This document shows, piece after piece, positions 6,003 through 60,072 of a stretch of 64,000 bases of DNA. Each line of letters opens with the position of its first letter. Within the stretch, counting starts at the first letter, position 1. Below the pieces are notes generated by a model. The model did no database searches. It saw only the letters and a program-made list of their open reading frames with translations, and was not told where the DNA came from. Source of the DNA: Candidatus Thorarchaeota archaeon. GTDB taxonomy: Archaea; Asgardarchaeota; Thorarchaeia; Thorarchaeales; Thorarchaeaceae. The stretch spans positions 21,755-85,754 of the forward strand of contig JAFGAR010000070.1 of NCBI GenBank assembly GCA_016933575.1. The letters are read 5' to 3'. The position numbers were made by a program, and so were the translations under genes.

Positions 6003-7268
6003 CTAGATCACGTCAAACACGATTTCCCAAAACTCACGTTCAGAGACCCCAGTTCTTAGGCTTCGCAGCTCACTCTTGATCTTCTCAAAAGCCATATCTG
6101 AATGGAGTTTCTTTTTGTCCTCATGTGTAATCTTCACTCTGTCAGTAATCTCACGGGCTTGTTCTGGACTAGCTTTAATGCCCCCCATTTTTAGCAGATA
6201 CTCAACAAAATGCCTGCCTACAAATTTTCCAAGATGGAATTCTCGTGTCCTTCCAACTCTCATGGGGCTAATAGGTTCATAGGTCATTGAATGGGTCAAT
6301 TGCCCATGGGAATGTATACCACTAGAATGTGTGAATGCGTTATCCCCACTGATTGACTTATGAAGCGGAAGTGGAATGACGAAGTTCTTTTCTACTAGAC
6401 CCGATAGTCTATACAATTTCTCTGTCTTAACACCTGTATCAATTCCATAGAGTTCCTCTAGAGCCATCACTACTTCCTCAAAGGCTGCATTTCCAGCTCT
6501 CTCCCCATATGCATTGACACAGACCTGTGGATATGTAGCTCCTTCTTCTATTGCAGTCAGTGTATTTGCTGTAGCGAGACCGAAATCATCATGACAATGG
6601 ACTGCAATTGGGACTCTGTATTTTTGTTCATTCCAAAGTCGTGATTTCACTTCCCGCATTATATGTCGCATTACCTCCGGACGTACAAATCCTACAGTGT
6701 CTGCTACACAGATTTTATCCGCTCCCGCATCGATAGCTGTTCTGTATGCCTCACAGAGGAAATCCATATTGCTTCTTGTAGAGTCCTCAGCAATGTAATC
6801 AACAATCAATCCATGCTCCCTACCGTGCTCCACACACTCAGTCAATCGTTCTAAGACCTGTTCTCTGGTCATTCGTAGCTGATACTTTAATCTAAAGTCA
6901 GAAGTAGCAATGAATATTGGCACCTCATCGACATCTGCTTCTATACAAGCATCGATGTCTTCGATAACTGCACGAGCAGGGGCTGCGACCTTAGCGTTTG
7001 AGAGTCCCTCTTTGGCAATTGCCGCGACTGCATTTTTCTCGGCTTCACTCACAGCAGGGAATCCGACAGCAACAATTGCTGTCCCAACTTCATCGAGCAT
7101 TTTAGCTATCTCGATCTTCTCATCGATTGTCAGAGCCACCCCTGGGGTCTGTTCTCCATCTCTCAAAGTTTCATCCCAGATGAACACCTTCCTAGGTAAG
7201 TATTCAGGTTTAGTACTAGGTACCTTGTTGTAGTTGACTGCAAGTCCTGCTTTCTCGAGAGTTTCCAT
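6003..7268 (-). CDS. LeuA/homocitrate/citramalate synthase family (DRE-TIM) without C-terminal regulatory domain
   Basis: DETLRDGEQTPG, HCHDDFGLA, GERAGNA motifs; 421 aa. Confidence 0.9.
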   Translation of the reverse strand: METLEKAGLAVNYNKVPSTKPEYLPRKVFIWDETLRDGEQTPGVALTIDEKIEIAKMLDEVGTAIVAVGFPAVSEAEKNAVAAIAKEGLSNAKVAAPARAVIEDIDACIEADVDEVPIFIATSDFRLKYQLRMTREQVLERLTECVEHGREHGLIVDYIAEDSTRSNMDFLCEAYRTAIDAGADKICVADTVGFVRPEVMRHIMREVKSRLWNEQKYRVPIAVHCHDDFGLATANTLTAIEEGATYPQVCVNAYGERAGNAAFEEVVMALEELYGIDTGVKTEKLYRLSGLVEKNFVIPLPLHKSISGDNAFTHSSGIHSHGQLTHSMTYEPISPMRVGRTREFHLGKFVGRHFVEYLLKMGGIKASPEQAREITDRVKITHEDKKKLHSDMAFEKIKSELRSLRTGVSEREFWEIVFDVI

Positions 7269-20732: not shown

Positions 20733-23700
20733 TTAATCCTTCTTCTTAATCAACCTCTTTGAGCCCTGGCGAACTTCCTCCAAACTGGAATCTGATTCTA
20801 ACAAATCTTTTACAATAGACCCTGTCTTGCTAGAAGATAATCCCAAGCGTTCTGATATTTCCGCACGGGTTAATCCAGTATCACTATTCAATATCTCCTG
20901 CCTGGCACGATTTATTGGATCTGTTAATGATATTGATTCAACGGGACTAACATTTGGTGTGGTTACTGGTGATGAGACATCTACAATTCCTGGTCCCCTT
21001 TTTCGTTTCATCAATGCTATAGCAAGAAGTGGAAATGAAACGCCTCCAGCTATTACTGCTATCATTACTGGATTGTTCAAGATTATGTCTAAGATACCAG
21101 AGTTTGGAGCTGTGATAGCTATGTGTCGGGGCGAAGATAATGCTAGCCACGTTGATAATGAGCCATTATATTGAACGACAATATCTAACGCAATTGCATC
21201 CAATGGCACAGTGAATTCGATTGTAGCCACTCCATCGCTGGAGGTCGATGCACCCATGATAGTAATTCGAGAACCATCTTCTGTAATAACAGTAATTGAG
21301 AATACTAGTTGAATACCACTAACTGGAGTACTTTGTTGATGAACTGTAGCTGTTACAAGAAGTACTTCGCCTGTCTGTATCTCTTCCACAGCAGATACTG
21401 AAATCGTATAGGTTGCTTTTTCCAGTATAACAAGATCAATGTATGCGATCTGAGTTTCGCAATCACTGGCTATTACTTCAAGCGACAGGTTGTATGTTCC
21501 TGGTACAAAAGTACTGAGCCAGATTGAAGTCGAATAATTCTGAGAGCCTGCTGAGTATACCAGCGAGTATTCAACACTATTTAGAACCACTTTCACATTG
21601 GCCCAATCAATTGGAATCATATTGTTCGTATCTGCTAACTTAATCGTGATTAGGATTGTTTCGTTTTCGTATTGGGAAATCTGTGAAGTGAATTCAATTT
21701 GGGTTGGTATTGGCATAACATCAATAATGACTTGACCAGTTCCGTTATCATATCCTGCACACTCAAGAAGTATATTCAAAGTATAGCTTCCAGTGTGTAC
21801 TGATCCACCTCCAATCTCAACAATATATGTCCCATTCCCTAAGTCTATCACGTTACTAGTACTAATCCAGTCAATAGATGAGAGAGCCCCACTAATTCCA
21901 CTATTTGTTCTTGTATCGAGGAATGTGAATCTAATGGAAGTAGACTCTCTTGCAAACATCACTAGAGGTTCGGGATTCACTACAATAGTGGGAATGAGTA
22001 AGATAGTAATTTCTAACATGTACGAATGTGTGGAATAGCCATAGGCTAATGTCGTGATGTTGAACGTATGTATACCAACGCCTAGGTCTTGTCCCTCAAT
22101 ATTTAGAACCCAATGGTCTGTACTCCACACTACACTCTGAGTCACTTCTTCTAGAGTGACAACACAAATGGCTCCTTGAATGATGCTCAAATTACTCATT
22201 CTATAGTAGATATCCGCCAGTTCATTTTCATCAAAATAGAACGTGCTTGTGGATGGTAAGACGCTCAATGTTGTGGATTCCTGAATGACTGTTAGAATGT
22301 TCGAATACCATCCGTCACTGTAACCCGTCATATTTGCAGTAACTGTAACATTCCATGTACCAAGGTCAATTTCCGATGCCAGAATACTAAAATGCCATTT
22401 CTTATCAATTGAATTATAGACAAGGTCATAGACTGTACCGTTGATTGAGAGTCGCACGGTTGCCCCAACTATTGGTTGAAAATCTTCAGTGTAAATGACC
22501 GTTAGATTTACAGTATCTGTATAGCTTGGTTGTAAGTTTCCCGGCTCCCAAGTCACAATAAATGAGTTTGCGGCAAGTGTCACATTTACTCCCAAAGTAA
22601 GGTTGGCTCGATGAGTGTAGCCATATAGCCATGCACTGATTGTAGCTTCGTAATAGCCTATGCCTAACTCATTACCGGAAATACTTATTCTCCAAGCATT
22701 TGATGAGTAAGTAAGATTGTAAATGTGCGTATCAATGGTCATATTGACTATTGCTGTATCAGGAACATCTCCTCCATAGTATGTATAATCAACTACTAAC
22801 GTCAGTACGCCTGTGTATTCGATTGTCACATTGCTTGGGTCCCAAATCACGCTAAGTTGATCTGTAATCACTTCACTGACCATCAAGGTTTCTAGAGCTT
22901 CTGCATAAGTATAACCATAGGCATCTGCTCGAATGATAACTGTATGTTCACCTAAGTCAAGATTGATACCGGTCAAATTGAAGTACCAAAGATCTCCAGA
23001 TGATAGTAATGGAATTGGAGTAGTTCCGTCGATTGAGATATTGATATTAACTCCTGTTGGAACTGCTTGACCTGTTAGAACATAGAAGTAGTTAGCAGTG
23101 AGGTCTATCTGACCTAGATAGTCAATTGTAATTGAATTCCAATCAAGATCTAGATTAGTTATAGCCTCAATTATATTGAATTCAATTGAGGCGTTTACTG
23201 CAAACTGATACCCATATTTACTGATGTTTACAACAACGACATGATTACCGAGATTAAATGAGTTGTTGAATTCAAACCAATAGACACCATTTGTTCCATG
23301 TAACACGTAAAGCGTTCCATTAATACTGATTGTCTTAAGCGTCGCGTTCTCGATGAGTGAACCATGGGAGTCTCGATATTCAATCTCAAGGATGATGCTC
23401 TCAGTCCAATCTATAGTATCTGTAAGCCAGGAAGCAATTGCTAGAGTTGGTTCTTCATCAACAGCAAGAGTTGTGGTTGCAAATTGACTTGAGTATACGT
23501 CCCCTGAAGCAAGTATACTCATGCTATAGTTACCTAATCCTGGAGGATTCATATTTCCATAGAATTTATACTGATAACCTCCTATAGAACCATTCCATAT
23601 TAGTGACCAATTATCAAACCCAATCGTGACATTTAGAATCCCTGTTGATATGCTAGTTCCATTACTCATCCTGTAGTAGACAGTTAAAGTTGTAGATTCA

Positions 23701-54815: not shown

Positions 54816-55015
54816 TGGGTCAATTCCTCTCAGTTCGCTCGTTTCCTCGTATCTAGCAATTCCTCTAGCCTGTCACACAGTGCATGGCGTGCACTATGAT
54901 TCTTCTCTCATAATTCCTTTTGAGGGTTATAGTGATGTATCCTAATTTCAAGTATGTCAGAATATGCTAAATGGTCACCCTTATAGGAGGTCTATTTTCT
55001 GAGCATTTGGTAATC

Positions 55016-55627
55016 ATGTCATCAAAGGAAGATCTTACATCAAAATGCCCTGTTTGTACAACAGGCAAATTGATTGTAAACTCCATGCTCTATAGCGTTC
55101 CATTCTTCAATGAACTTGCTATGTTCACAATGAAATGCCCTGAATGCGGCTTCAGTCATAGTGATGTATTCTCAGCAGAGCAACGAAGACCAACGAGATT
55201 TACACTACATGTAGATGATGTTTCACTTCTTAATGTGCGTGTGGTTAGATCGGGCTCTTGCACCTATCGTTTTCCAGAATGGGGCATAGATGTTGAACCT
55301 GGTCCTGCTGCAGATGCTTTTGTTACCAATGTTGAGGGTCTTTTATTTCGAGTAAGATCAGTAGTCGAGACTGCACTCGGATTTGCTGATGAGGAATCTG
55401 AGCGTAAACGCGCAAAGCAAATACTTGATGAGATTATGCTAGCCCTTCGAGGCGATTATTTCTTCACCTTAGTAATGGAGGATCCTGCTGGTGTCAGTGG
55501 AATCTTACCTGATGATTTGACCTTGGTAAAAATTGAAGAGCTCAGTCCTGAAGAAACCTCTCATTTGAAAGGTGCTCCTTTCTGGATTGACACTATGCGC
55601 GAAGAGATATCGGAGCGTAAGGGTTAA
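55016..55627 (+). CDS. ZPR1 zinc-finger protein (archaeal single-module)
   Basis: CPVC...VPFF...CPECGF..SDV, LNVRVVRS, EPGP...FVTNVEG, EDPAGVS; likely start ATG 55016. Confidence 0.92.
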   Translation: MSSKEDLTSKCPVCTTGKLIVNSMLYSVPFFNELAMFTMKCPECGFSHSDVFSAEQRRPTRFTLHVDDVSLLNVRVVRSGSCTYRFPEWGIDVEPGPAADAFVTNVEGLLFRVRSVVETALGFADEESERKRAKQILDEIMLALRGDYFFTLVMEDPAGVSGILPDDLTLVKIEELSPEETSHLKGAPFWIDTMREEISERKG

Positions 55628-55658: not shown

Positions 55659-55765
55659 GGGCCGGTAGATTAGCCCGGCAGATCGCATGGTTTGCAAACC
55701 TTCTGGGTCTCCCAGGAGATCAAACCTCCATGAGGCCGCGAGTTCAAATCTCGCCCGGTCCACCA
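55659..55765 (+). tRNA. tRNA-Ala(UGC) with 30-nt canonical intron (55697-55726), CCA encoded
   Basis: acceptor GGGCCGG/CCGGTCC with G3:U70, discriminator A, anticodon stem CATGG/CCATG, TTCAAAT T-loop, bulge-helix-bulge (CAA / TTTG:CAAA / CCT) at position 37/38. Confidence 0.95.
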
Positions 55766-55883
55766 TATCATATTCTTCTTTATTGCTTGATATTAAATTA
55801 AGAAAGAAATTACAGAAATACAAATGCACGATATTGATTTAGAAACATAGAAGACTGCTAATTGGCTTTTCAGAGTGTTTTAA

Positions 55884-56405
55884 TCAACATAAAATTAAGA
55901 TGCCAAAGAACAGAATATAGCGAAACGAAAGAAGAAAGATACCTATTACCAGAAAAAGTAACGAATATTTGAAAGTCCTGAATTTCTTACAATTAATCTC
56001 AGCTAGAGCATAAGCTTCTAATGCATAGTCTTTCAAAATGATATCATCTTTTATACTTTCAATGAATGAAATGTAGTCCTTAACAGTTTTTTTTACAATA
56101 TTTTGAAAAAAGATGGAATCGTCATAATTTTCTTTCAATCTCGGATGAATAGTGAAAATTGATAGCATGAATGATATTGTGAAGAGAATTACTAGTATAA
56201 TGAATGTTGAGAACATGAACATTTGTAATTCTATTTGATCTTCATCAAGAAAAGTTAACACCTCGACCCCGAATATAACTGGAAGTAGAACAGAAATCAT
56301 ACCTACTACAATATTTGCCTTGCTATCAGCAAGACCAATTAAGTCTTGGTTATGCTCAAATACAGCTTTAATATATTCGAATGTGTTATCTTTTTCAGTA
56401 ACCAT
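55884..56405 (-). CDS. Pycsar-effector-like (PycTM/DUF5706) transmembrane protein
   Basis: IGLADSKANIVV, TM2-IHPRL, SIFFQNI, AYALAEINCKKF...S, final TM: the PycTM pattern. Confidence 0.75.
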   Translation of the reverse strand: MVTEKDNTFEYIKAVFEHNQDLIGLADSKANIVVGMISVLLPVIFGVEVLTFLDEDQIELQMFMFSTFIILVILFTISFMLSIFTIHPRLKENYDDSIFFQNIVKKTVKDYISFIESIKDDIILKDYALEAYALAEINCKKFRTFKYSLLFLVIGIFLLSFRYILFFGILILC

Positions 56406-56493
56406 AATGTGCTAAAATATAATGTTTCAAAATAAAAAGCATTTGAATGGTCAATTGAGATCTTCAGATTCTTTTTGATAGGATGGGAGAGCG

Positions 56494-57108
56494 GTGATTG
56501 CTACCATTATCGATATTGTATCATCAAAGGATATTAATGCACATGAACGAAAGAAACTAGATAAAAAGATACGAGATATACTGTGCCAGACCCATACACG
56601 CTTCAGAGAATATTGCTTGGCCATACCTACTCTGACTCAGGGAGATAGTATTGAGCTGTTGGTCACTAGTTGGCAACCAATTGTGTTTCTCCTTCATAGG
56701 CTTTTAATGGAAGAATTGAAGTTTCGAGTGGGACTTGGAACCGGAACAGCCATCATCCAAAAAGAAGTCGCGGACGAGTGTGATGGATCTGTCTTCTGGA
56801 ATGCAAGAAATGCGATCGACGAGATAAAAAAGATGAAATACATGAGTATATCTCTTGGCTTTATAATCGATGATAAAACCTCAAGTGATGAGAGGAATGC
56901 AGTAACAAATTCTGTTCTCTTATACACTTCGCTTCTTAGTCTTACTACTGCTCAGTTGGAGTACTGTTTTTATTACATATGGGAAAAGAAACAAATCTCA
57001 GAGATTTCAGAGGTCACAAGAACTTCGAAGGGAAATATCAGCAAAACCTTGAGTAAGACACCATGTTACCTTCTTGAAAGGGTGATGGCATTCTTGAACG
57101 AAATGTGA
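56494..57108 (+). CDS. SatD family protein (nucleotide-cyclase-like palm + C-terminal HTH)
   Basis: IDIVSS, QGDSIE, FRVGLGTG, DGSVFWNARNA; KQISEISEVTRTSKGNISKTL HTH. Confidence 0.75.
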   Translation: MIATIIDIVSSKDINAHERKKLDKKIRDILCQTHTRFREYCLAIPTLTQGDSIELLVTSWQPIVFLLHRLLMEELKFRVGLGTGTAIIQKEVADECDGSVFWNARNAIDEIKKMKYMSISLGFIIDDKTSSDERNAVTNSVLLYTSLLSLTTAQLEYCFYYIWEKKQISEISEVTRTSKGNISKTLSKTPCYLLERVMAFLNEM

Positions 57109-57217
57109 GATAGTTTATCAAAATGATCGAGAAGGGCATATCTATGATCTGATTGTAAGTATTGCTGTGAGATATATTAAAACATGGCAGGAAATTTGAG
57201 TGATTATAGGACCAGAC

Positions 57218-57242
57218 GTTCAAATCGCGCCCGGTCCACCAT
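57218..57242 (+). repeat. att-site copy of tRNA-Ala 3' end
   Basis: GTTCAAATCGCGCCCGGTCCACCAT vs tRNA GTTCAAATCTCGCCCGGTCCACCAT. Confidence 0.9.
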
Positions 57243-57663: not shown

Positions 57664-60072
57664 ATGGTGAGACAAAATATGCAATTATTCGAGACATTCC
57701 TAACAAGCATGTCGCTGATTGAGCAGTTAATGATAATGACTGTCATTGCGGCTGCTTTCGTAAGTCTCGTGTATGCTTGGTGGCTCAGGAAAGGTGTCCT
57801 TGCACAAGACAAGGGTACTGAGCAGATGCAGAGAGTATGGAACGGTATTCGAGAAGGAGCACTATCATATCTTCATAGACAGTTGAAGACAATCGTCCCG
57901 ATATTGATTGTCCTATCTATTCTTCTTTTCTTCACCGTTTACATTACTACACCAGAAAGAGGTACAGAGGTCTTATTTGGTGATACTGAAACTGGTCGAA
58001 TTATTGTCGGTATCGGTCGTTCACTGGCTTTTGTACTCGGTGCAAGCTTCTCACTTATTGTTGGACAGCTTGGTATGCGTATTGCCGTTGAGTCTAACAT
58101 TCGAGTTGCACAAGCTACACGTGAAGGAGATAATAGATACAATCGAGCGCTAACAATATCCTACAGAGGTGGTACTTTTACAGGCATGCTCACAGATGGA
58201 CTTGGTCTACTTGGAGGCACTGTAATCTTCATCATCTATGGTATTGCAGCACCAGATGCACTTCTTGGCTTTGGTCTTGGTGGTACCCTTCTAGCTCTCT
58301 TTATGAGAGTAGGTGGTGGTATCTACACCAAGGCTGCTGATGTTGGTGCGGATCTTGTCGGCAAGGTAGAGCAGGGTCTACCTGAGGACGATCCTAGAAA
58401 TGCTGCAGTCATTGCAGACCTCGTTGGTGACAACGTGGGCGACTGCGCAGGTATGGCCGCAGATATATTTGAGTCATATGAAGTCACAATTGTTTCTTCA
58501 TTGATTCTTGCTATCGTTTTGTATCTCGAAACAGTTGATGGAATATTCCCAGTTCTTCCTGGTGGAGCACTTGCAGTTGTTGTCTTTCCACTCTTTGTGA
58601 GAGCTGTTGGAGTCATCTCATCAATGATTGGTACAGTAATGGTTCCAGTATGGCCGCGGCTGCTCAAGAAACGGGCAGTATATGCAGAGAAAGCGATGTT
58701 CCTCTCCTACGAGGCTTCAAGCATCTTCACAATCTGTCTGACCATGCTCTTATCATGGTTCTATGTTGGAGATATCAGATTTGGAATCCTAATTGCTGTC
58801 GGTGTTCTCTTAGCAGTATCATTCAATCCAATCACAAGTTACTTCACATCCCTCAAGAAGGCACCCGTAAAAGAGATCGTCAAATCTACTGATACTGGTG
58901 CAGCAACAATGATTCTCTCCGGCATTGTTGCAGGATATGAGTCAACAGTGGCTGCTCTCGTAGTCATTGTATCAACATTTGGTATAGCTATTGTTCTGTT
59001 CATGCCTGGAATAGCTGCAATCTTCGCACCATTCTTCGTAGTTGGTGTTGAAGGCAATCTTTGGACACTCTATGGTATTGCATTGATTGGTATTGGCATG
59101 CTATCACACACAGGCAACAATGTCGCAATGGACTCTTACGGTCCTATTAGTGACAATGCCGCAGGAATTGGCGAGCTCTCACCAGGTGATTTCGATAAAG
59201 AAGCCATGAAGACTATGGCAGAACTTGATGCAGTTGGAAACACAACCAAGGCGATTACCAAGGGTGTAGCTATTGCATCAGCAGTCATTGCTGCAGTCAG
59301 CCTCTTTGACAGCTTTGTTGTAGTAGCTTTGGGACCTCTTGGATTGGATCACCTATTCCTAGATGACCCGAGAGTCTTCTCTGGTCTACTATTAGGTGCC
59401 GCTTTGCCGTGGCTCTTCTCAGCAGTCAATATCAAAGCAGTAACTCGAGCGGCTGGCGAGATGATTAAGGAGGTACGTCGTCAATTTAGAATTCCAGGTA
59501 TCTTGGAAGGTACTACGCCACCCGATTATAGTAGAGCTGTTGACATCTCTACAACAGCAGCTCAGAAGGAACTCGTTTCACTTGCTGCATTAACAGTTAC
59601 AGTACCACTTATTGTTGGTATTCTATTTGGAGTTGCAGCACTAGGTGGATTTCTAGGTGGTATAATTGTGTCTGGTCAATTGTTAGCTGTCTACATGTCC
59701 AACACAGGTGGGGCTTGGGACAACGCAAAGAAGGCAATTGAAGACGAAGTCTGTGATCCTGAACATAATCTAGGAAAAGGCTCCGAGCGTCACAAGTGTG
59801 GAGTTGTTGGTGACACTGTAGGTGATCCTTTGAAGGACACTGCTGGACCCGCACTCAATCCAATGATAAAGGTAGTCAATCTCCTCGCTTTGATTCTGGC
59901 TCCAGTCTTAGTCATGATTGAAACCACTGGTACAATGACTATGCTATTAGCAGCTGTAGCAGCACTCTTCATTTTATTCGTGGTGACCATCTGGGCATTG
60001 CGAAAGAGTATGAAGGAAGCTGACTTTGGGATGCATTCCGAAAAGACTGCTAAGGCCGAAGCTACCTACTAG
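57664..60072 (+). CDS. hppA: membrane-bound H+-translocating pyrophosphatase, K+-independent type
   Basis: GGIYTKAADVGADLVGKVE, EDDPRN, DNVGD, GNTTKA (Lys determinant), GDTVGDPLKD. Confidence 0.96.
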   Translation: MVRQNMQLFETFLTSMSLIEQLMIMTVIAAAFVSLVYAWWLRKGVLAQDKGTEQMQRVWNGIREGALSYLHRQLKTIVPILIVLSILLFFTVYITTPERGTEVLFGDTETGRIIVGIGRSLAFVLGASFSLIVGQLGMRIAVESNIRVAQATREGDNRYNRALTISYRGGTFTGMLTDGLGLLGGTVIFIIYGIAAPDALLGFGLGGTLLALFMRVGGGIYTKAADVGADLVGKVEQGLPEDDPRNAAVIADLVGDNVGDCAGMAADIFESYEVTIVSSLILAIVLYLETVDGIFPVLPGGALAVVVFPLFVRAVGVISSMIGTVMVPVWPRLLKKRAVYAEKAMFLSYEASSIFTICLTMLLSWFYVGDIRFGILIAVGVLLAVSFNPITSYFTSLKKAPVKEIVKSTDTGAATMILSGIVAGYESTVAALVVIVSTFGIAIVLFMPGIAAIFAPFFVVGVEGNLWTLYGIALIGIGMLSHTGNNVAMDSYGPISDNAAGIGELSPGDFDKEAMKTMAELDAVGNTTKAITKGVAIASAVIAAVSLFDSFVVVALGPLGLDHLFLDDPRVFSGLLLGAALPWLFSAVNIKAVTRAAGEMIKEVRRQFRIPGILEGTTPPDYSRAVDISTTAAQKELVSLAALTVTVPLIVGILFGVAALGGFLGGIIVSGQLLAVYMSNTGGAWDNAKKAIEDEVCDPEHNLGKGSERHKCGVVGDTVGDPLKDTAGPALNPMIKVVNLLALILAPVLVMIETTGTMTMLLAAVAALFILFVVTIWALRKSMKEADFGMHSEKTAKAEATY

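Follow-up and report, generated by a model that had tools for sequence, protein, structure and literature searches.

Behind a tRNA-Ala gene of a Thorarchaeota genome we identified an islet that joins, on opposite strands, two genes that usually keep other company: one for a PycTM-family membrane effector, here without its adjacent cyclase, and one for a SatD protein, here without its SatE-type membrane partner. The islet lies in a window of 64,000 nucleotides (positions 21,755 to 85,754 of contig JAFGAR010000070.1, Candidatus Thorarchaeota archaeon, assembly GCA_016933575.1) from a metagenome-assembled genome (MAG) of 3.47 Mb in 215 contigs, which is 85.5% complete. Judged from sequence comparison, the two genes are complementary halves, each without its own usual partner. 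The alignments indicate that a single event fused a PycTM cassette, with its own promoter, to a satE-satD operon, deleting satE except for its last 35 bp, and that two lineages inherited the block. Both genes have stayed intact under purifying selection since the fusion, so that the pair is genuine and maintained by selection. That the two are functionally coupled in some way is plausible, although unproven, and we regard it as roughly an even call. Positions are those of the window, and the contexts compared are numbered as loci (L), genomes (G, with G000 the window's own genome) and proteins (P).

SatD and SatE (PF16264 with DUF3307, PF11750) are named after the sat operon of Streptococcus mutans. 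Species-representative genomes contain at least 591 stretches that match a single SatD peptide pattern. In a subset of 80 bacterial SatD loci from such genomes, a downstream gene with multiple transmembrane (TM) segments was present at 63 under strict rules and at 73 or more under looser ones; the partners tested were DUF3307 proteins in seven of seven cases, and SatD had no membrane partner of any kind at about four loci. Plasmids yielded four SatD matches, and both examples examined have a normal SatE-type partner. Among 400 Asgard genomes scanned for SatD and PycTM, 54 carry SatD, always in single copy and in varying contexts. The TM gene follows satD in non-Thor Asgard archaea (16 loci, 124-151 aa) and precedes it in Thorarchaeota (12 loci, 163-227 aa, with a gap of usually 8 bp). 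By profile comparison, the homologue of both Asgard partner types is the C-terminal half of bacterial SatE (probability 97-99.7%). A SatE-like profile matched the gene directly upstream of satD in five of five same-genus genomes tested. PycTM was considered as a SatE-type homologue and rejected (profile probability of 1% or less).

The Asgard SatE-type partners (L004 4310-4993, L052 3472-3993, L008 4430-4993 and those of other Thorarchaeal loci) have no Pfam match. They share the invariant motifs CGGLQ.GG, VAGKAIFRYS and C.DW. In bacterial SatE, the counterpart of these proteins is the C-terminal half, which is un-annotated and lies beyond DUF3307. In an SMTZ1-45-type Thorarchaeote (L006/L079, G004:C12) the SatE-like gene is split into ORFs of 72 and 84 aa upstream of satD and may be broken.

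The islet departs from this arrangement. In nearly all other loci satD is accompanied by a co-directional SatE-type gene, whereas in the islet only a 35-bp stump of that gene is left and PycTM occupies its place on the other strand. The stump matches the last ~9 codons plus spacer of satE-type genes and is also found at L050. The closest relative of the window SatD is P0002 (77% identity), recovered from four JGI samples. It too has a divergent PycTM upstream, across a spacer of 86 bp; 104 residues of this PycTM are assembled, and over these it is 80% identical to that of the window. In the SatD phylogeny, the window protein and P0002 form a clade (100/99) nested in SatE-linked Thorarchaeal SatDs, and the nearest outgroup, P0019, has a SatE-type partner. 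The window and L050 have both junctions in common. Because a second organism shares this junction and the two SatDs fall in one clade, the fusion arose once. To the right of satD the flanks differ: the window has the right-hand repeat (att') and a pyrophosphatase (PPase) gene, and L048-L051 have a luciferase-like gene and no att copy on that side. The inner junction of the block was thus retained while the right flank changed. The near-constancy of the SatD-SatE-type pairing across bacteria and Asgard archaea, the joining of a satE stump to the PycTM promoter region, the occurrence of this junction in a second organism and the lack of a detectable PycC, class III cyclase or SatE in the genome are new here.

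Substitution patterns bear on whether the block is alive. Between the window and L050, the ratio of nonsynonymous to synonymous substitutions (dN/dS) is 0.19 for SatD (dS 0.67) and 0.23 for PycTM (dS 0.46); for PycTM of the window versus that of L044, a further locus at the same tRNA site, it is 0.17. A preliminary description of this DNA had offered, as an alternative to a functional pair, that both genes are unrelated leftovers of a decayed element. That alternative fails, because both ORFs are intact and dN/dS has been ~0.2 since the joining event.

SatD matches its Pfam family at 8.1e-15 (55.5 bits; cut-off 29), with a weak C-terminal helix-turn-helix (HTH) match besides. An AlphaFold model made with 95 diverse homologues reached a pLDDT of 96.7. 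Foldseek placed only class III adenylyl cyclases at the top of its matches to this model (probability 1.0; E 4e-4; best TM-score, by target length, 0.56), and VIA-align gave Z of 10-12 and a root-mean-square deviation of 2.5-3.0 Å over 113-133 residues. Fold relatives of residues 1-147 comprise class III adenylyl and guanylyl cyclases, GTP cyclohydrolase III, GGDEF domains and mCpol. In the model, residues 1-147 form a palm of the class III cyclase/GGDEF type, the relationship that the preliminary description had proposed for checking by fold comparison. The sequence carries the family motifs D...GD...R.G.G.G...DG....AR followed by the HTH. Across the 95 SatDs, D7, D51 and G98 are invariant and S11, R19, G50, G80, G82, G84, D97, A104 and R105 nearly so. 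We identify D7 (strand 1) and D51 (GD turn) as putative metal-binding aspartates from motif and spacing. They lie 44 residues apart, as do D396 and D440, which bind metal in mammalian adenylyl cyclase. In fold and conserved residues, SatD looks like an enzyme, with putative catalytic activity. The islet protein is an ordinary member of its family, inside the Thorarchaeal SatD clade, and the conserved residues are all present in the PycTM-linked SatDs.

A SatD profile run against PDB sequences matched at the C-terminus, to YlxM/sigma-70-region-4-like HTH domains, and not at the palm. PADLOC and NCBIfam gave no useful match for SatD. No study of function emerged from literature searches on the SatD family, PF16264 or DUF3307, and SatD is not mentioned in the domain-centric defence paper. 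Some bacterial SatDs are fused to long tetratricopeptide repeat (TPR) arrays, one also to hexapeptide repeats, or consist of two tandem SatD-HTH units (P0131, P0169, P0191, P0212, P0215, P0239; P0124, P0135, P0155).

The second gene of the islet encodes a full-length PycTM family member. It matches PF18967 at 2.3e-8 (34.8 bits; cut-off 27.2) and the PADLOC PycTM model at 5.2e-22 over residues 5-167 of 173, near full length. These profile matches, together with those of SatD, bear out the assignment of the two proteins in the preliminary description, and the motifs and HTH that it quoted are all present. The PycTM stop codon is 118 bp from the tRNA, and SatD is the neighbour on the other side. 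PycTM occurs in 21 of the 400 Asgard genomes. The usual downstream neighbour of Asgard PycTM relatives is a PycC-like gene: at 14 loci, L046 counted, a gene of 231-252 aa follows on the same strand, and 7 of 16 scanned candidate neighbours match PF00211. A metagenome scan with PycTM returned one locus, a canonical PycTM-cyclase pair. L044, at the same tRNA-Ala site, has the same tRNA intron and a PycTM 69% identical to that of the window. Homology between the two runs from the tRNA through PycTM to ~55 bp upstream of its ATG and stops at window position 56460; beyond the equivalent point, 170 bp of unrelated sequence in L044 lead up to a tRNA fragment. At L046 (3-248), an AAA_21 (AbiEii-type) ATPase gene fragment adjoins the PycTM-cyclase pair that, among canonical ones, is closest to the window PycTM, a defence-island-like setting.

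Two further described systems offer comparisons. Pycsar and Pucsar TM systems combine PycC or PucC, class III-type cyclases that make cyclic nucleoside monophosphates (cNMPs), with PycTM or PucTM, 3TM effectors of the pJV1-spdB3 family (bioRxiv 10.64898/2026.08.12.744502; PMC11224242). A 2026 survey of Pycsar-related cyclases links Pycsar/Pucsar cyclases to CNBD-TIR effectors and to these 3TM effectors, and describes PucTM as a hexamer assembled like a channel; HTH, DUF3307, archaea and Asgard do not come up in its main text (bioRxiv 10.64898/2026.08.12.744502). The islet resembles these systems in its membrane protein and in the overall palm fold that SatD has in common with PycC. It differs in that Pycsar has an adjacent PycC in the operon, whereas islet and assembled genome have none; in that the neighbour here, SatD, has an HTH, no PF00211 match and no profile-level homology to PycC-like proteins; and in that the Pycsar genes are co-directional and those of the islet divergent. 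Panoptes consists of the mCpol protein OptS and a 2TM effector (PMC13712596; OptS structure 9mnr). Compared by fold only, it is similar in that its nucleotide synthase is a stand-alone palm-domain protein, small like the membrane effector with which it is paired, and OptS is among the SatD fold matches, at ranks 37 and 39. However, the class III cyclases match SatD better in fold than OptS does, and OptS has no HTH and is paired with a different effector family.

In our preferred reading, the pair is a nucleotide-signalling unit in which PycTM would serve as the membrane output of SatD in place of SatE. The SatD palm, with its two invariant aspartates, would turn a nucleoside triphosphate into a small, probably cyclic, nucleotide. 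This nucleotide would gate a PycTM oligomer, and the membrane would be perturbed as by the Pycsar/Pucsar TM effectors. The HTH would hold SatD on DNA or tie its activity or expression to a DNA cue. From SatD catalysis and the identity of the product to the response of PycTM and any role in defence, we infer these steps; we consider such coupling possible, although appreciably short of an even chance. Several observations favour it. The only cyclase-fold gene found in G000 adjoins the single full gene of the cNMP-effector type there, and neither has its usual partner. Searches of G000 with PF00211 and with PycC-like and SatE-like profiles gave no match, although the PycC-like and SatE-like profiles matched their targets in control genomes (G059 and G022 for the PycC-like one). 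Given that the assembly is 85.5% complete, the absence of PycC and SatE from the genome is not proven. Among the 400 Asgard genomes the two families are adjacent only in G000; G059 has both, on different contigs. The long survival of SatD here is easier to explain if PycTM fills the membrane role, because a partnerless SatD is rare elsewhere. To this extent the suggestion in the preliminary description that SatD may stand in for PycC holds up, with a cyclase fold, a PycTM effector and no PycC or other class III cyclase found in the genome.

A competing explanation, for which our expectation is likewise below even but a shade firmer, is that the genes are chance neighbours: unrelated stacked cassettes joined by deletion, each gene working or idling alone, PycTM as an orphan effector with a trans-acting activator or none and SatD as a stand-alone regulator or enzyme. 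Against chance, and for coupling, stand the adjacency of the sole cyclase-fold and sole effector-type genes, the purifying selection over dS ~0.67 on a SatD without its membrane partner, of a kind that almost never survives elsewhere, and the preserved inner junction beside a changed right flank. A series of other findings weighs against nucleotide-signal coupling, and most of them favour chance. The satE stump and the abutting homology tracts mark the join as one deletion-type event, neither a clean nor a repeated swap, and neighbouring array cassettes may have fused by chance at a site that is a hotspot. The event happened once; an independent recurrence of the pair was not verified. The preliminary description had suggested counting SatD-PycTM neighbours across genomes, and this gave none at the 80 bacterial SatD loci and none at the 21 other Asgard PycTM loci. 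The two genes are divergent and do not form an operon. L044 has no SatD beside its PycTM, and G337 (same family, 95% complete) has PycTM and neither a SatD nor a PycC-like gene anywhere in its assembly, so this PycTM type persists without an adjacent SatD. The nearest partnered relatives of the window PycTM (49-50% identity) are canonical PycTM-PycC operons and thus pair with PycC, not SatD.

The enzyme side of the argument has counterpoints of its own, and at the level of sequence profiles the substitution of SatD for PycC finds no backing. In Pfam, SatD matched neither PF00211 nor PF00990 at E up to 1, and hhalign of the SatD profile against the PycC-like profile gave a probability of 13.7%, over the first strand only. 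The other cargo that relatives carry at this tRNA site is not defensive, which also counts against the signalling reading.

Coupling might instead be confined to transcription. The HTH of SatD would repress or activate in the shared 88-bp region, controlling a potentially toxic PycTM as well as SatD itself, and the palm would sense a nucleotide instead of producing a signal for PycTM. This fits the clear C-terminal HTH and the divergent intergenic region, which is ~80% conserved between the window and L050 and contains an inverted repeat. It also fits a pattern at normal loci. Within 100 bp before the satE-satD operons of L004, L052, L077 and L083 we found repeated GTAAACA, TGTTAAC and GGTAAACTTATAA motifs, which are likely operator sites, possibly for SatD itself; such palindromic repeats are compatible with autoregulation. 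However, the GTAAACA/TGTTAAC motifs are absent from the islet, which counts against transcription-only control and against nucleotide-signal coupling alike. Furthermore, L044, where no SatD adjoins PycTM, also retains the stretch of the intergenic region nearest PycTM together with its inverted repeat, and the invariant D7 and D51 argue for catalysis over mere binding. We consider coupling through transcription alone unlikely.

A broader proposal would make SatD the signal-making enzyme of a large, unrecognised two-gene family of nucleotide second-messenger systems that extends from Streptococcus to Asgard archaea, with an HTH-tethered palm synthase and, as output, a small membrane protein. 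SatE and PycTM could then replace each other in the output role, and the pair in Thorarchaeota would be a natural hybrid that points to a cyclic mononucleotide as what SatD makes. We advance this tentatively and rate it as rather doubtful. More immediately, SatD/SatE is a widespread gene pair, of which SatD is now tied to a nucleotide-cyclase fold with invariant putative metal ligands, and in one Asgard lineage the membrane partner of SatD has been replaced by an effector family that answers to cyclic mononucleotides. A functional pairing would provide a direct, testable hypothesis on what SatD makes and what SatE does, and it would carry Pycsar-type signalling over to archaea and to a synthase other than PycC. 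Should the pairing have no function, the locus still shows a deletion fusion of cassettes behind a tRNA, and an orphan PycTM under selection without a neighbouring cyclase.

The islet is a tRNA-bordered island without an integrase: the tRNA 3' end is repeated at both borders, relatives have the site empty, and we found no integrase of its own. The direct repeat is 25 bp long with 24 of 25 positions identical, the second copy begins 1,476 bp downstream of the first, and the 1,451 bp between them hold the two divergent ORFs (PycTM on the minus strand, SatD on the plus strand) and no integrase ORF. This agrees with the repeat, the ~1.45 kb of DNA and the gene content given in the preliminary description, as does the AT-richness that it ascribed to PycTM (GC 0.28-0.32, versus 0.41-0.47 in the flanks). 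The tRNA scores 51.9 bits in Rfam over 55659-55762 (gathering score 29). By hand reading, it has the anticodon UGC, the G3:U70 pair and an encoded CCA that ends at 55765. ARAGORN did not call the tRNA-Ala at 55659 because of the intron, 30 nt at the canonical 37/38 position by comparison with intron-less orthologues. Among the orthologous tRNA-Ala(UGC) genes this intron is found only in the window and L044 (820-850 region), the two loci with PycTM here; it is absent from 12 orthologues of the genus.

The single repeat mismatch, T to G, falls in the T-stem, and a complementary change, A to C, lies just upstream of the second copy, so that a C52:G62 pair is kept. Because of this mismatch and compensatory change, the right repeat comes from another tRNA allele and is neither a chance match nor a local duplication. 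It consists of ~27 nt of another tRNA-Ala allele, as site-specific insertion would leave; none of the sampled relatives' tRNA-Ala genes has the C52:G62 allele.

The gene order ZPR1, tRNA-Ala, H+-PPase is kept across the genus, and ZPR1 adjoins the tRNA in 17 of 18 same-genus genomes. The name H+-PPase for the gene at 57664-60072 is one that we assume from reading the sequence. In five genomes (G009, G001, G012, G016 and G005) the tRNA and the PPase gene are only 200-570 bp apart, and the site is therefore empty in them; relatives with an empty site had been among the checks suggested in the preliminary description. Other genomes of the genus have 2-6 kb of different cargo, extra tRNA 3' copies or whole tRNA copies. 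This cargo is metabolic: enolase-superfamily, beta-lactamase-family, NosD, KARI and a solute-binding protein. The islet is best explained as a cassette at a variable spot behind tRNA-Ala that has no integrase, although a classic tRNA-targeted insertion describes the locus just as well. A stronger claim about mobility, compatible with any of the functional readings, is that the 1.45 kb are an active non-autonomous mini-element moved into tRNA-Ala by an integrase acting in trans, with the two genes as cargo. The repeat from a different allele with its compensatory T-stem change, the empty sites and the PycTM cassette at the same site in another MAG (L044) all suit such an element. Yet the islet has no integrase, the genome of G000 contains a single tyrosine recombinase match (PF00589), on another contig, viral contigs contain no relative of PycTM or SatD, and the DNA right of satD in L048-L051 differs and carries no att copy. 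We regard an active mini-element as improbable.

Table 1. Features of the islet and its flanks, in window positions
Feature	Position	Strand	Basis
ZPR1-type zinc-finger gene, conserved left flank	54971..55627	+	Pfam jr-ZPR1 7.5e-15 and Zn_ribbon_ZPR1
tRNA-Ala(UGC), CCA encoded	55659..55765	+	Rfam tRNA; 5' exon 55659-55696, intron 55697-55726, 3' exon 55727-55765
Left direct repeat, tRNA T-loop to CCA plus 1 nt	55742..55766	+	Repeat search, family D3
PycTM cassette segment, common with PycTM-only L044 at the same tRNA site	55767..56458		Alignment to L044
PycTM-family 3TM effector gene, 173 aa, no adjacent PycC	55884..56405	-	Pfam PF18967 and PADLOC PycTM/2TM effector models
Divergent intergenic region, 88 bp, ~80% identical in L050	56406..56493		Alignment; inverted repeat TTCAAA-N10-TTTGAA
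satE-type 3'-end remnant, 35 bp, former stop now TGG	56459..56493	+	Alignment to satE-like genes of L197, L052, L006
SatD gene, 204 aa, GTG start	56494..57108	+	PF16264; AF2 model; fold and HTH matches
SatD palm domain, cyclase fold (predicted), residues 1-147	56494-56934	+	AF2 model
SatD HTH, residues ~149-203	56938-57102	+	YlxM and sigma factor matches
14 bp after satD stop (GATAGTTTATCAAA), identical in L050; L050 homology ends thereafter	57109..57122	+	Alignment
Right direct repeat, orphan tRNA-Ala 3' fragment, of a different allele (C52:G62)	57218..57242	+	Repeat search and allele comparison
H+-translocating pyrophosphatase (PPase) gene (presumed), conserved right flank	57664..60072	+	80-94% identical orthologues after tRNA-Ala in relatives

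Two further candidates within the islet were set aside. A CRISPR-DR62 match at 56412-56448 is taken as chance (28.4 bits against a threshold of 45, E 0.76), and an 18-nt motif family (D1; 56025, 56419, 57110) does not exceed chance by a rough estimate for AT-rich DNA. Elsewhere in G000 a tRNA-3'-end-like 24-mer occurs twice, 842 bp apart, around a 217-aa ORF with a C-terminal hydrophobic tail (C7:97962-98827, L191 1501-2366); Rfam found no complete tRNA within 1.5 kb of this pair. Among the relatives, the orthologous tRNA-Ala of L038 (G002:C8, ~6833-6940) has an insertion of ~31 nt in its T-arm, which may be a non-canonical intron or a disruption. L042 (G011:C146, 2345-4131) has three tandem tRNA-Ala copies ~850 bp apart, two of them each followed by a 159-aa ORF without a Pfam match, an arrangement that resembles duplicated cassettes.

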